Shown piece by piece: positions 282 through 62,049 of a stretch of 64,000 bases of DNA. The notes beneath the pieces were generated by a model that saw nothing but the letters and a program-made list of their open reading frames with translations, was not told where the DNA came from and did no database searches. Numbering within the stretch: position 1 is the first letter of the stretch; every line of letters starts with the position of its first letter. This DNA comes from Stegostoma tigrinum (lineage: Eukaryota), in NCBI RefSeq assembly GCF_030684315.1, contig NW_026728203.1, forward strand, positions 124,001 through 188,000. Reading direction: 5' to 3'. Made by a program: the position numbers and the translations under genes.

Positions 282-383
282 CATGGAGAGGTAAACATAG
301 GAGGAATAGAGCTCCAGGTTGATCTGCTTGTTAACAGCATCCTCACAGTCCTTGTGGTAGTTCTGACACACTCGGGAAACCAT
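282..383 (-). CDS. Ferritin copy 0, exon 1 only (rest of gene lies left of the window)
   Basis: Reads [34 protein letters not shown] then a GTGAG donor (ctcac at 277-281). TATA at 453-460. Confidence 0.9.
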
Positions 384-421
384 CTTCACTATTCCTGCTC
401 ACAAGCACCAAGAAAACTCTA

Positions 422-645
422 GAACTAAGTCTCTCTCTCCCACAGGCTCTTGTATTTATAGTCCTGGGACCATCCTGCAGTCACACAGAGAGAGGCAGAA
501 CTGATGATGACTGACAGTTGCTGCTGGCCAATCAGGAACCACCCATGCATACAGGCACCAATGAGAGAGAGGGGGAGGGTGTGTTAAGCAGAGCTGATCA
601 GAGGTGGAGATGAGAGCCAGGTCTGGATGGTTATTCTGTGATTGG
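422..645 (-). promoter_or_regulatory. Ferritin core promoter: Inr-like TTAGTTC (422-428), TATAAATA (453-460), CCAAT boxes (528-532, 558-562, and one near 641-645)
   Basis: Motifs read directly from the sequence; the same layout recurs upstream of most copies. GCCAATCAG fits the NF-Y consensus. Confidence 0.7.
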
Positions 646-56600: not shown

Positions 56601-57762
56601 ATAGAACAGAGAACATGACAGCACAGTACAGGCCCTTCGGCCCTTGACGTTGTGCCGACCTGTCATACCGATCTGAAGCTCATCTAACCTACACTATTCC
56701 ATGTACGTCCATATGCTTGTCCAATGACAACTTAAATGTACTTAAAGTTGGTGAATTTACTACCGTTGCAGGCAAAACGTTCCACACCCTTGCTATTCTC
56801 TGAGTAAAGAAACTACCTCTGACATCTGTCGTATATCTTTCACCCCTCAATTTAAAGCTATGCCCCTCGTGCTCGCCGTCTCCGTCTTAGGAAAAAGGCT
56901 CTCCCTTTCCAACCTGTCTAACTCTTTGATTATCTTATATGCCTCAATTAAGTCACCTCTCAACCTTCTTTTCTCTAACGAAAACAGCCTCAAGTCCCTC
57001 AGCCTTTCCTCGTAAGACTTTCCCTCCATACCAGGCAACATCCCAGTAAACCTCCTCTGCACCCTTTCCAAAACTTCCACATCCTTCTTATAATGCGGTG
57101 ACCAGAACTGTACACAATGCTACAAGTGCGGCCGCACAAGAGTTTTGTACAGCTGCAGCATAACCTCTTGGTTCCGGAACATGATCCCTGTGTTCATAAA
57201 AGCTAAAACACTGTATGCCTTCTTAACAACCCTGTCAACCTGGGTGGCAACTTTCAAGGATCTGTGTACATGGTCACCGAGATCTCTCTGCTCATCTACA
57301 CGACCAAGAATCTTACAGTACTTTGCCTTCCGGTTCCTCCTACCAAAGTACATCACCTCACACTTGTCCGCATTAACCTCCGTTTGCCACCTCTCAGCCC
57401 AGCTCTGCAACTTATCTACGTCTCTCTGTAACCTACAACATTCTTCGTCACTATCCACATCTCCACCGACCTTAGTGTCGTCTGCAAATTTACTAACCCA
57501 TCCTTCTACGTTTATAAAAATGACAAACAGCAGTGGACCCAACACGGACCCTTGCGGTACACCGCGAGTAACCGGTCTCCAGGATGAACATTTCCCATCA
57601 ACCACCACCCTGTCTTCTTTCAGCAAGCCAATTTCTGATCCAAACTGCTATATCTCCCACAGTCTCATTCCTCCACATTTTGTACAATAGCCTAATCGAA
57701 CGCCTTGCCGAAATGCATATACACCACATCAACCGGTTTTCTCTCATCTACCTGTTTGGTCA
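56601..57762 (-). mobile_element. 5'-truncated CR1 LINE, duplicate of insertion b
   Basis: ORFs 57120-57626 and 56847-57080. Same tatgtt flanks (56595-56600 and 57763-57768) as 15882-17043. Confidence 0.93.
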
Positions 57763-59837
57763 TATGTTCTAATGGGAAAGTGATTGGCAACATCAATATC
57801 TTACCGAATAAATATCTAACTGCTCATTCACATATTATCCTTTCCAAAAAGCAGCTGTTTTTTGCTTTATCATGGATGATTTACTTCTACTACTAGGAAT
57901 GTAATCATATTCCCCCCTCTCAGTCCTGGATGCGAATTGAAAAGAAGCAGGATCTCTCTATCTACCCTATCAAATCCATGAATCCACTTGTAAATTTCAA
58001 GCACAGACATCCCGTCCACTTCTACATCGAGGGACTTGGGAAAACGATTATCATCGGAGCCAATTAACTTTCTGCCCAGGTTCATTCCAGAAATTCTGTG
58101 CGTAAGCATCTTTGGATTGAACCTACTAGAACCGTGCACTCGAGATGGAGTTGAGCTAGAACTTGACAATTTCACAAAAGAAGAAGGCCCAGCCAGAGGT
58201 ATTTGACCCGCTCTGAGATCATGCCCACCACAAGAGAATGGGGTGGCTTTCCTTCTTTAATTGCTGTTGCCTATTTGCTGTAGTCAGATCCACAATGTTC
58301 TTAGTGAGGGAATTCCAGGATTCTGATCCACCGACACTGGAGTGTTATGTTTCCAACTCAGGATGGCAGGTAGCGCGATGGAGAACTTAGAGGGGGTCGT
58401 TTTCCCCCGTGTCAGATGCCTTTCTCCCATGGCAACTAATTAGGGCTTTGGAAAGTCTTGTCTCAGGAGCTTTGGTGGATTTCTACAGCTTTTGGGAGGT
58501 GGTACACAGTGTACTCCGTGTGTGTCAGTGGTGCAAAGAATGAATCTAGTGGCTGCTGGAGGCCATCAAGTTTCTGGAGTGGTGGACTGATCTCCTAATT
58601 CTGTGCGACAACTCTCTGGAGTTCTAGAATTAAGAAGCTGATGAGGAGCATTATATTCAGTGTCAAAAACCCATCCTTACCTAGTCTGGCCTGCATATGA
58701 CGCTGCAACCACAGCCATGTGTGTGACTCTGACCTGGCCTTGGGAACATTGGATAAATAAATGTCAGCTCAGAGACATCCTCATCCTTTAAATAAAGGAA
58801 ACTGTCACCCCTGCGCATCAGTAATTAGGCAGCCATAGTGCATTGCAGGTGGAGGTACATGCCGGTCAGTGTACATCAGGAGAGCTTATTTCCTTGCTAC
58901 GCACACAAACTGCTGCTTTCTGCTAGTGGCATTTGCATTCTAGCTTTATTTTTACTGAGCCTTTGGCATCTCTACATTGCAGATCAATGATAGAAGTTCT
59001 ACCACAGGGGCTCCAAGGTGGGCACTGCTGCATTACGTAATGAGGATCATTTTCTGCTTCTAGACAGACTGATACACGAGAAAACAAATTTTGCCATTCT
59101 CCTACAATCAGGCAGTGCCCTTACTCCTTCCCCCACTGCAGCAAAAGAGAGTAAACAATTTCCCAGCTCTGGACACAATTGCTTATCTAAAATGCTAAAG
59201 ATCAGTGCATCTTAGATGCTGGATGTTCCACTATATATTCCTGTTCAAAAGAGTGAAAGTATGCTCAAATCACTAGATTTGAAGTGCGACAAAAAAATTG
59301 CTGGAAAGCCTCACAGGTCTGGCAACATCTGTCACAAGATATGACTGTAGCTTGGGTCCTGGGACTGAGAACAGTTCTCTGCACAGATGCTCCCCAAACC
59401 TGCTATTTCCTGCCCCTACTTATTTACAAAAGAGACTTGAACATTGCCAAGGGCAGTGTCCAACAGTGAGACAGGGGGCTGGTTTCACTGAAGATATTGA
59501 CTAGAAGCTGGTTTGGAATAAAAAGTCAATACAACACTGCTTACTAGCCAAAAAACCCAAATTGAACACTTGTGGAATTTCCACTGCGAGGATTGCCCAC
59601 TTAATTCCTACAGACAAGAGAAAGGAGCAGACCACTGGGGCAGGCATTGAATCAAAGGTTAATCAGAACAGAAAAGGAATTAATGATCAGGTGTCAAACA
59701 GCAATACCAAGAGCCAGAAGCAGCTGTGAAATTATGCAAAGTACTCAGTTCCATGGTGAACACTACTTTAATTTGCTCAGAGCACAACCAAGTAACTAGC
59801 ATTATGTCACCATGTACAACATACACATTGACCCCAT

Positions 59838-62049
59838 TCAGCTGAGTGTGAGCCTGTCAAACAGGTACTCTCCCATGCCATTGTCAGGGGCTCCCAGTCT
59901 CTTCAGGTTGGTGATGTGATCTCCCAGCTTCTTGATCATCTTCACTTGCTCATCCAAGTAGTGCCTCTCCAGGAAGTCACACAGCTGGAAGACAAAATTA
60001 ATCCAGAGGATCAAAAAGGTGTCTGAAAGTGACTTCACATGACAGATGTGACCATCACTACCACGTGGAGGTCCACTTAGGTGATGCCTTTGATAGGTTT
60101 TAACAGCCGGCAGGAGGCTTGGAGAAGGTAATTGGATTTTTAAACTGAGAGAGTGCACAAACATCACTTTCTTCCAAGGAAGAGAGAGAATAAAGTTTAC
60201 AAACTCACATGAGGGTCAGTGTGGCCAGAAGCGAGTTTGTGCAGATCCAGCAGACTCTGGTTCACACCTTCTCCATCTGCAGAGCTCTCTGCATTGCCTC
60301 CAGACCATTGCCCCACTCATCCCGCTCTGGCTTCTGGAGGGAGGGAAGTGGGAACAGAAAGCAGAGTTCAGCAGGCAGTTGTATCACTATTGTGGTGTTA
60401 GAAACATCTTCCAGATTCAGAAAGGCTGGACACTGCTGCTTTCCACACTGCAACAATTTCCTGTCTTAGCTTTTGTTCCCTCATTCTGTCTAAAGGAGAG
60501 TCATTCACATTGATATCTACTCACTATTCTGGTTCATCTCAATTGCGGACTATTTCCTGTCACCTAAAGGAAGCCTATTTTTCTGAACAACCTCCCCTTC
60601 ACTCAGTATTTGTTCAATGCTAAAGCTAAATAGAGGGAGATACCAGTCGATTGTAGCTGCTCACAAATAGCTGCAAAACAGAAGGCTTCAGAATCCAAAC
60701 TTAATGTCCTGCAGGACAACTCGACCGCCACGTTTATTCTGGAATGCCATCAGTTTCTCAGTGTGTTCCCGTTCCTCATGGGACTGCTCCTTGAAGAACT
60801 CAGCAAAGTGATGCAGGGCAACATCATCCCAGTCAAAGTAAGAGAACTGTGGGGGGAGAGAGAGGTTAAAAGGAAACTGTCTGAAATTCGTGAATGACAC
60901 TCCTCACTCAGGAACTAACCTGGGCACCATCTTGATTCCACATTTAAGTGGTTAAAAAAACAGACAAAAGCAGGAAGTCACCTTCCATGGATTATAACCC
61001 AAACAACAGATACTTAACCAGCCTTTGTGCAGATATTTCACCAGCATTCTGGAAATCAAGGACAAAAAGCAAATGCAATCCCTGGCCTGTGGTCAAGAGA
61101 GAGAGAGACGCATAGTGCCTGATGAAGTGGAGAGCTGTCTATAGCCATTAGACATCCCTGCTCTGCAGGTTAGAAACACTATTGTTCAGGAGGTGGAGAC
61201 CAGTTCAGCCCCTGTCCAACTGAATGAAGGGACATGTGTTCATTAGCACAGCCAGAAATCTCAGTCAGCAGCCTCATTATCACCATCACCCACCTGAATA
61301 ACCCCAGTGTCCTACCATCCACTCCACAGAATTCTAACTGCTTTGTTAGGGAGAGAAAAAAAAAAAATCACATTCATAGTGTGAAAATGTGCCTCTTTCC
61401 TCACATTGCATAGCTCAAAGCCACTTGAGAAAGGGTCAGTGGACCCAGAGCTTGGTTTTCAACCAGATGTTTAGAGCTTTTCTGTTGGTGTTTAGTGTCC
61501 ATCAGCTGCTGTTCTTTTAGTTCAGGGAACTTTACATCTTGAGCACAAGACAGTCTGGTGACTAGGGCAAGTTTTCAAACAAAAAGGAGTATATTTGTGT
61601 CAGGAAAAGTTTCCACCAGGGAAGGCTTTTGTTGAGAAAAGGAATGCAACCAATTTTAAAATTTAGTTATTGACAAAAAACACATCATCCCTCCAGAGTT
61701 AGATGAAAAATCACCAAGGGTTACATTGTCCAGAGACAGCAAGCTGGGCATCCACATCCAGGAGCCAGTTGGACATGAAGACAATGGTCAGGTTTTGAAC
61801 AGAGAGTCAGTGTTAAGACCTGCACTAGATTGCAACAGGGGAAGGGCCACAGAAAATAATACATGTTACAGCTAATTCATTAACCCAGCGTAAAAACCAA
61901 ACAGGTCAACACTATCATAGCGCAGGCTTCAATTCCACAAAGCTCACCATGGAGAGGTAAACATAGGAGGAATAGAGCTCCAGGTTGATCTGCTTGTTAA
62001 CAGCATCCTCACAGTCCTTGTGGTAGTTCTGACACACTTGGGAAACCAT
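59838..62049 (-). pseudogene. Ferritin copy I, probable pseudogene. Exons 62049-61948, 60846-60700, 60333-60209, 59984-59838
   Basis: The exon 2 donor GT is changed to TT (60698-60699). Exon 3 is 125 nt (1-bp deletion near 60267). Intron 2 has an internal deletion. TATA is intact at 62119-62126. Confidence 0.85.

Follow-up and report, generated by a model that had tools for sequence, protein, structure and literature searches.

The closest described counterpart of this locus is the set of ancient ferritin clusters that Sahm et al. (2024; bioRxiv 10.1101/2024.09.09.611499) reported to be syntenic in the Greenland and white sharks and ovary-specific, with 155 'FTL' and 179 'FTH1' copies, of which the largest cluster contains 104 and 118, respectively. 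Their ferritin passage, a single paragraph, gives no gene tree and no IRE, active-site or conversion analysis, concerns other species and names its copies by likeness to human genes. The original prediction had allowed that the expansion might be undescribed, but it is already in print in that preprint. More than 85% of the copies in the published clusters were reported as full-length, against three of nine intact in the window, which is the whole 64-kb stretch of DNA analysed here, from the zebra shark Stegostoma tigrinum, a carpet shark. Judging from sequence similarity and from the Carcharodon members of our tree, these clusters probably belong to the same family as the window array. A second Greenland shark genome paper reportedly describes an expansion named FTH1b. 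RefSeq models annotated as 'ferritin heavy/middle/higher subunit-like' in Stegostoma, Rhincodon, Chiloscyllium, Hemiscyllium and other sharks are 96-98% identical to the intact copies, their automatic names mixing H, M and 'oocyte' labels within one lineage.

Other ferritin systems resemble the array in part. Fish and amphibian M subunits (frog 1MFR; salmon M1-M3, PMC4117605) share with it four exons, a colinear protein and the ferroxidase residues, but the M genes are few and carry an IRE, whereas the array type (type A) makes up a separate clade, carries Met141 and, in the window, ends three residues early. The hadal snailfish fthl27 genes (PMC10746142) are also tandem and highly expressed, with 14 copies read as dosage against oxidative stress; that array is, however, recent, teleost, expressed in most tissues and far smaller than the shark array. 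The mammalian H/L heteropolymer (PMC11719527) likewise sets a catalytic subunit, comparable to type A, beside one without key ferroxidase residues, comparable to a second shark type (type B) whose E138 is the same as in human L. Types A and B differ from that pair in that they are sisters that both belong to the cartilaginous fish and have both expanded on a single chromosome, and their co-assembly is hypothetical. In the literature searched we did not find the type A lineage, the retention of ferroxidase residues without an IRE, type B, or exon homogenisation with mosaic copies, all of which the present analysis adds.

Exon mapping placed ten four-exon ferritin units (102/147/126/147 nt) head-to-tail on the minus strand of the window, spaced 5.1-7.9 kb apart. 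The tandem, intron-containing family of the original prediction is therefore real, and its counts were reproduced: ten copies, three with intact ORFs (c1, c3 and c7; 173 aa each) and six broken by distinct lesions, the remaining unit (c0) being cut by the window edge. A tblastn of the window with three ferritin types as queries detected no exon beyond these units and no type B gene, all genes present being type A. A retrocopy origin was rejected because the units keep their introns. As the original prediction states, the array touches both window edges. At the left, only exon 1 of c0 (282..383, with a TATA box 77 nt 5' of the ATG) lies inside the window, and at the right the repeat unit reaches base 64000, the segment 61120-64000 being 96% identical to 20481-23372 and holding no further exon.

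Among the intact copies, c3 (19130..21422; exons 21321-21422, 20187-20333, 19491-19616 and 19130-19276) and c7 (46825..49110; exons 49009-49110, 47893-48039, 47198-47323 and 46825-46971) have a TATA box at -77, and c1 (4803..7193; exons 7092-7193, 5869-6015, 5201-5326 and 4803-4949) has no TATA box and carries Y26C and E54V. The pseudogene c2 (12265..14674) has a TGA in exon 2, a 2-nt deletion and an in-frame TAA at Q138 in exon 4, and a replaced upstream promoter (57-65% identity to other copies). In c5 (33575..35967), also without a TATA box, a +1 nt frameshift lies at the end of exon 3, and exons 1-3 match 125 of 125 residues of the Stegostoma RefSeq protein P0019. A 2-nt deletion in exon 3 of c6 (40269..43234) is accompanied by several changes at conserved residues. 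The frame lesions of c5 and c6 are one small indel each and may represent consensus errors. Only exons 2-4 of c8 remain (54762..55948), with an exon 2 acceptor changed from AG to GG; exon 1 and the promoter are gone, and the junction of the loss, near 56575/56579, is joined to sequence 96% like the spacer 15860-17181. The last unit, c9 (59838..62049), combines an exon 2 donor change (GT to TT) with a 1-nt deletion in exon 3.

Exon 1 of the pseudogene c4 (25840..29906) is split by a 1,141-nt insertion, a 5'-truncated Penelope-like element (28722..29862, minus strand) with a GIY-YIG domain and a 16-nt target-site duplication, whose 5' junction bears 5.5 telomeric hexamers (29826-29858). The spacers hold LINE reverse-transcriptase fragments, one of which (15960..16928, minus strand) was copied along with the units; others lie at 51272-52387 and 57120-57647. 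A domain scan of 10 of the 66 long ORFs of the window returned three reverse transcriptases and seven ORFs with no match, the GIY-YIG frame being one more ORF scanned.

The ferritin domain (PF00210) was matched in all four exons tested, two of them exceeding the curated cut-off. The proteins nearest to those of c1, c3 and c7 are Stegostoma tigrinum RefSeq ferritins (96-98% identity), and the closest relatives of known structure are frog M ferritins (73% identity). Residues E24, Y31, E58, E59, H62, E104 and Q138 are present in all three intact copies and were kept in broken copies wherever readable, except for the stop at Q138 in c2. We take Y31 to be one of the ferroxidase positions; the other six are listed as such, in salmon numbering, in PMC4117605. 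Most shark type A proteins conserve the residues of the ferroxidase site and of the three-fold channel, and the array proteins are 83-88% identical to sevengill, sawshark, horn shark and white shark proteins that retain the active site. Type A is thus likely a catalytic subunit with ferroxidase activity. It is set apart from ordinary subunits by R132, an L-like C-terminal helix and Met at position 141, where Ala, Ser or Asp is usual.

The original prediction had proposed a phylogeny with chondrichthyan FTH1 and M subunits as a check, and in a tree of 50 proteins type A separated as its own clade (support 99/92) beside FTH1 (99/98) and ordinary elasmobranch M (100/98). The type A clade includes both shark superorders, with the white shark (Carcharodon) among its members, and is excluded from the FTH1 clade; Stegostoma FTH1 is a separate gene on another contig, 73% identical to type A. 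Forcing type A with FTH1 cost 19 lnL in an AU test (p-AU = 0.117) and grouping A, B and elasmobranch M, in a tree without the mammalian L chain, cost 2.3 lnL (p-AU 0.388), so neither an H (FTH1) nor an M origin was rejected. An ordinary M gene lies on the same contig as the array in Heterodontus, Scyliorhinus canicula and Pristis. By its placement in the tree, type A appears to be a chondrichthyan ferritin lineage of its own, separate from both FTH1 and the single ordinary M gene. Each of 13 shark species has several copies of its relatives, and one sawfish and one chimaera have a single one, which refutes the narrow lineage specificity initially proposed. At least 26 distinct Stegostoma proteins are among the type A matches and clusters listed, and none of the RefSeq models listed is identical to c1, c3 or c7.

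Type B, the second expanded ferritin type, lies on the same Stegostoma chromosome as type A. The proteins checked carry E59K in 32 of 32 cases and Q138E in 27 of 32, type B having lost ferroxidase residues in an L-chain-like manner. The node uniting A and B as sisters is only moderately firm, with support of 97/87 in the 50-protein tree and 91.2/69 in another tree.

The array promoters are of the TATA/CCAAT type. No Rfam IRE match reached the gathering score anywhere in the 64 kb, none of the weak Rfam matches upstream of c3 (three) and c7 (six) was an IRE, and no CAGUG loop was detected between TATA and ATG in c0, c3, c7 or c9, in a search that placed the transcription start from the TATA box and had no positive control in Stegostoma. 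Type A copies appear, from their upstream sequence, to lack the IRE, unlike the canonical vertebrate ferritin genes (FTH1, M and FTL).

Mean identity among copies was 93-98% in exons but 68-80% in introns. In the 24 pairs, out of 36, whose introns are distant, four-fold sites differed by 0.096 compared with 0.233 in intron 2; c1 and c9 had no differences at the 49 third positions of exon 4, yet their intron 3 was 45% identical. Copies were also mosaics of one another. Pure birth-and-death predicts synonymous divergence near the intron level and independent copies, whereas synonymous sites here were far closer than distant introns. This pattern suggests that the exons undergo gene conversion and unequal crossing-over. 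Because exons are homogenised, introns diverged and copies mosaic, concerted evolution operates alongside birth-and-death: the turnover originally predicted stands as regards frequent gene death, six of the nine whole copies being dead, but not as plain birth-and-death. In the dN/dS check, omega was ~0.65 over 89 changes among the window copies (p = 0.033), indicating weak purifying selection, and none was detectable in the changes private to the three intact copies (two synonymous, seven replacement; omega ~1.3 on nine changes).

The family is expressed, as 38,428 of the 714,730 contigs of run X5 map to one array gene, with depth confined to exons and joints at the predicted introns. X5, a run sharing its species label with the best-matching DNA run, holds very abundant spliced transcripts of the ferritin family in many variants, identified at the level of the family and not of c3 or c7. 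No run listed as containing the family was recorded as RNA, and X5 was recognised as spliced from its alignment to the gene. Depth summed over contigs reflects expression only poorly; the private exon-2 allele of c1 accounts for ~0.08% of the depth in X5. Run X24, of the same species label and study, contains next to no family words and was not counted toward tissue specificity. In DNA run X1, all 30 bins of c1 were covered, and exon depth was ~1,850-3,470 compared with 39-81 for single intron contigs. The bisulfite run X21 yielded 79 reads, whose small number and heavy conversion precluded a depth estimate.

We consider, with a probability of roughly 60%, that the window is a piece of a large shark ferritin cluster and serves as a gene-dosage array for the mass production of IRP-independent ferritin, probably in the ovary. 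The ovarian assignment is carried over from the Greenland shark because X5 has no tissue on record; the oocyte role guessed in the original prediction would, by this analogy, match the ovary-specific expression published for that species (Sahm et al. 2024). Many copies and loss of the IRE would together allow bulk, IRP-independent synthesis in cells of the gonad, of which growing oocytes or follicle cells are the likeliest, for safe iron banking in large yolky eggs with less iron-driven oxidation. The 14 fthl27 copies of the hadal snailfish offer a precedent for dosage (PMC10746142). By the sequence pattern, unequal crossing-over and conversion inside exons, the sole near-identical stretches, maintain the array as mosaic copies with alike coding sequence, and individual copies are redundant, weakly selected and often lost.

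Of the other readings, the one that survives best, although we regard it as unlikely, keeps the tissue and changes the job, with the protein serving mainly to protect long-lived oocytes from oxidation or ferroptosis, or as a bulk storage protein, and iron banking being secondary. The finding that fthl27 lowers ROS in cells (PMC10746142), the uncoupling of synthesis from iron through IRE loss, and the unusual M141, R132 and C-terminal helix are in its favour, but most shark type A proteins keep the ferroxidase and three-fold channel residues, and the antioxidant action of ferritin itself depends on iron uptake.

Granulocytes form in the epigonal organ, which wraps the shark gonad. Expression there, for iron withholding or haematopoiesis and carried along in 'ovary' samples, would give the cluster an immune or blood-forming role, to which we assign a slightly smaller likelihood. 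Fish ferritins do respond to infection (PMC4117605), and the fast turnover and weak constraint of the array resemble those of immune families; the published signal is nevertheless ovary-specific (Sahm et al. 2024), and the exons are homogenised rather than diversified as in families under pathogen pressure.

Still less probable is a largely neutral array, in which one or few copies suffice, number drifts by unequal crossing-over and conversion merely mimics conservation. The dead copies, the intact-private omega and the spacer transposon fragments, which favour unequal exchange, would fit such drift, but several copies persist in each of 13 shark species from both superorders, the related proteins of sevengill, sawshark, horn shark and white shark retain the active site, and transcripts are very abundant and varied in X5. 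An assembly artefact is already largely refuted and very improbable, since introns, lesions and insertions vary from copy to copy, X1 depth is far higher in exons than in single introns, the expansion recurs in many independent shark assemblies and no long pair of segments within the window exceeds ~97% identity, as duplicated haplotype pieces would, even though some Stegostoma proteins are recorded both on a chromosome and on a 267-kb scaffold, so that whole scaffolds may be alternative haplotypes.

The dosage reading can be extended, more tentatively and at less than even odds, to the proposal that an H/L-like system arose a second time, independently, in cartilaginous fish. An ancestral gene would have given rise to catalytic A and non-catalytic B, both amplified to dozens or hundreds of copies on one chromosome, with A losing the IRE; the two would assemble together and give giant yolky eggs an iron store that is oocyte-specific and IRP-independent, their ratio set by copy number and their exons kept alike by conversion, possibly via cDNA of a very abundant germ-line message.

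The expansion itself is already published, and it is its meaning that could matter. The array clearly exemplifies concerted evolution that is confined to exons and goes together with frequent gene death. Should the cluster prove gonadal and shared by sharks at large, a high number of ferritin copies would be a shark reproductive trait and not an adaptation of one species to longevity or the deep sea. If the A/B proposal is true, a catalytic ferritin free of the IRE and paired with an amplified L-like sister would repeat in nature the H/L split of mammals, and the pair would offer a direct route to asking how yolky vertebrate eggs get their iron.

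Self-comparison resolved the window into long imperfect direct repeats of up to about 97% identity, in which mapping of one copy's four exons located ten minus-strand ferritin units (c0 to c9, left to right), with exons of 102, 147, 126 and 147 nt and a spacing of 5.1-7.9 kb. tblastn of the window with three ferritin types as query detected no ferritin exons beyond these units. Intact 173-residue frames with GT-AG introns were found in c1, c3 and c7, and six copies were broken by a different lesion in each, namely stop codons and a deletion (c2), a retroelement within exon 1 (c4), a one-base insertion (c5), a two-base deletion (c6), loss of exon 1 and a dead acceptor (c8), and a one-base deletion together with a dead donor (c9). 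The lesions of c5 and c6 each rest on a single small indel and could be consensus errors. Unit c0 is incomplete because the left edge truncates it; on the right, the window ends in spacer sequence. Exon mapping and tblastn thus bear out the counts of the original prediction exactly: at least ten copies, three intact and six broken, in an array touching both edges. The insertion in c4 is a truncated Penelope-like element (28722-29862, minus strand) whose 5' junction carries 5.5 telomeric hexamers, within a 16-nt target-site duplication; the hexamers hint at telomerase-type or telomere-templated joining upon insertion. LINE reverse-transcriptase fragments in the spacers (15960-16928, 51272-52387 and 57120-57647) were copied along with the units and could serve for dating the duplications.

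A tree of 50 proteins, the phylogeny called for at the outset, placed the window copies within a chondrichthyan clade of 15 proteins (type A; node support 99/92) that includes sawfish and chimaera proteins and is separate from both the FTH1 clade (99/98) and that of the ordinary elasmobranch M gene (100/98). Stegostoma FTH1 is 73% identical to the array copies and lies on a 64-Mb contig, while a 26.9-Mb contig and a 267-kb scaffold carry the Stegostoma relatives of the array. Birth of the array at the M/L locus is favoured because ordinary M genes share its contig in Heterodontus, S. canicula and Pristis; both an M origin (p 0.388) and an FTH1 origin (p 0.117) are compatible with the AU tests. 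Every ferroxidase residue listed for salmon H and M in PMC4117605 is retained in c1, c3 and c7. Type A is set apart by Met141, in carpet sharks also by Arg132, and its final helix resembles that of human L. In all window copies, and in many type A and type B proteins (type B being a second expanded type), codon 6 of exon 1 encodes Cys where the SQVRQNY start has a conserved Arg, a change that could permit new disulfide links on the ferritin shell.

With c3 exon 2 as query, 985 proteins were matched, shark ferritins being best among the 120 listed and Stegostoma tigrinum first. Copies c1, c3 and c7 were 96-98% identical to Stegostoma proteins, and exons 1-3 of c5 encode 125/125 residues of one of them (P0019), which makes the zebra shark the most likely source of the window. 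The 90% protein clusters of these relatives have up to 127, 138 and 180 members, membership being known from 15 listed members per cluster. Among the matches and members listed, at least 26 distinct type A proteins were from Stegostoma, and several type A entries occurred in each of 13 shark species (Stegostoma, Rhincodon, two Chiloscyllium, Hemiscyllium, two Scyliorhinus, Mustelus, Heterodontus, Carcharodon, Cetorhinus, Pristiophorus and Heptranchias), with one each for the sawfish Pristis and the chimaera Callorhinchus. No type A entry from other rays was among the matches listed, which does not prove absence. Window-copy proteins were 83-88% identical to family members from sevengill, sawshark, horn shark and white shark, and the active site is intact in most shark members; the protein is well kept at the family level. 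The accession of the Pristis entry (P0378) directly neighbours the accession of the ordinary M gene, and both lie on one contig. This sawfish protein carries Lys24 and Arg62, so its ferroxidase site is probably lost; in the chimaera member (P0385), position 138 is Ala. Many RefSeq shark models of both types, in several species, are about 260-300 residues long and repeat exons 2-3 (P0003, P0004, P0230 and their clusters); these one-and-a-half ferritins reflect either real duplication within a gene or the joining of broken neighbouring copies during annotation. Two ferritins of vertebrate type recorded under Aeromonas veronii and Salmonella (P0100 and P0164), on contigs below 1 kb, are probably host contamination of bacterial records.

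A sevengill protein query revealed type B as a second large cluster (76 members), located on the same contigs as type A in Stegostoma, Chiloscyllium and Hemiscyllium; tblastn detected no type B genes within the 64-kb window. The two types grouped as sisters (97/87 in the 50-protein tree, 91.2/69 in another). Among 32 type B proteins checked, 14 of them from Stegostoma, ferroxidase position 59 was Lys in all 32, as also in mammalian L, and position 138 was Glu in 27, as in human L. PMC8395497 lists E62K as a ferroxidase-residue loss.

Mean identity among window copies was 93-98% in exons, 68-80% in introns and 76% downstream. In 24 of 36 pairs, those with a distant intron 2, divergence was 0.096 at four-fold sites against 0.233 in the intron; in the remaining 12 the values were 0.064 and 0.082. 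Exon 4 is identical between c1 and c9, flanked by intron 3 at 45% and downstream sequence at 69%. Copy c1 is a mosaic sharing its promoter and intron 1 with c5 and introns 2-3 with c4 and c6, and c8 shares intron 2 with c1, c4 and c6 and intron 3 with c3, c5, c7 and c9. The switch points lie within or beside exons, as would be expected from unequal crossing-over and conversion. Mean dS was 0.089 and mean dN 0.044. For dN/dS, proposed beforehand as a measure of constraint, omega was 0.65 over 89 changes (p 0.033, with transition bias taken from introns) and about 1.3 for the nine changes private to intact copies. Selection among window copies is weak, and neutral drift is one rival explanation of the array.

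A TATA box lies 74-77 nt upstream of the ATG in 7 of the 9 promoters present, therefore the 5' UTR would be roughly 50 nt. The exceptions, c1 and c5, have in common a proximal promoter that lacks the TATA box (7194-7290 and 35968-36065). It is 98.7% alike between them over 300 nt and departs from other copies solely in the last ~100 bases before the ATG. No Rfam family reached gathering score in the window, the weak Rfam matches included no iron-responsive element (IRE) upstream of c3 and c7 (a search made with no same-species positive control), and a CAGUG loop was absent upstream of the ATG in c0, c3, c7 and c9. In salmon, every H and M transcript contains an IRE (PMC4117605), whereas none was detected in the window copies.

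One gene region (4500-7500) was compared at 85% likeness with contigs of four sequencing runs. In run X5, labelled as the same species as the best DNA run, 38,428 of 714,730 contigs matched, with depth on exons and UTRs, zero depth over intron interiors, joints at the three predicted introns and many variants; transcripts of the family are therefore spliced and highly abundant in X5. TATA-less c1 contributes little to this sample because its private allele at 5957 makes up ~0.08% of the depth. A minor joint in the same region (5326 to 7092) skips exon 2 in frame. Run X15, from another organism, contained a contig of 693 nt in which the four exons are joined. DNA run X1 covered 30/30 bins, with ~1,850-3,470 in exon bins versus 39-81 for single intron contigs; this depth, raised beforehand as a safeguard against assembly artefact, suggests roughly tens of copies, although summed depth is no copy number.

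The expansion itself is already known. In a preprint by Sahm et al. (bioRxiv 10.1101/2024.09.09.611499), the Greenland shark is reported to have 155 FTL and 179 FTH1 copies. Three clusters, matched in synteny in the white shark and given an age of at least 250 million years, contain ~80% of these copies, and the largest is ovary-specific in expression; type B may be what was counted there as FTL. Hadal snailfish have a smaller tandem expansion, with 14 copies of fthl27 (PMC10746142). Our searches on a zebra shark array, chondrichthyan ovary ferritin and shark fth1b returned no literature, and none of the literature searched described the lineage identity, the loss of the IRE or the pairing of a catalytic with an L-like type. 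An antioxidant or storage role and an immune role in epigonal tissue are further rivals. Given the anatomy, splicing, active-site residues and homogenisation observed, our preferred reading is a dosage array, in which many redundant IRE-free copies would supply large amounts of catalytic ferritin, in a gonadal cell type if the tissue can be borrowed from another shark. Exchange between exons would keep the coding sequence alike while individual copies die, and the ferritin so made would probably bank iron for large eggs, a purpose we infer.
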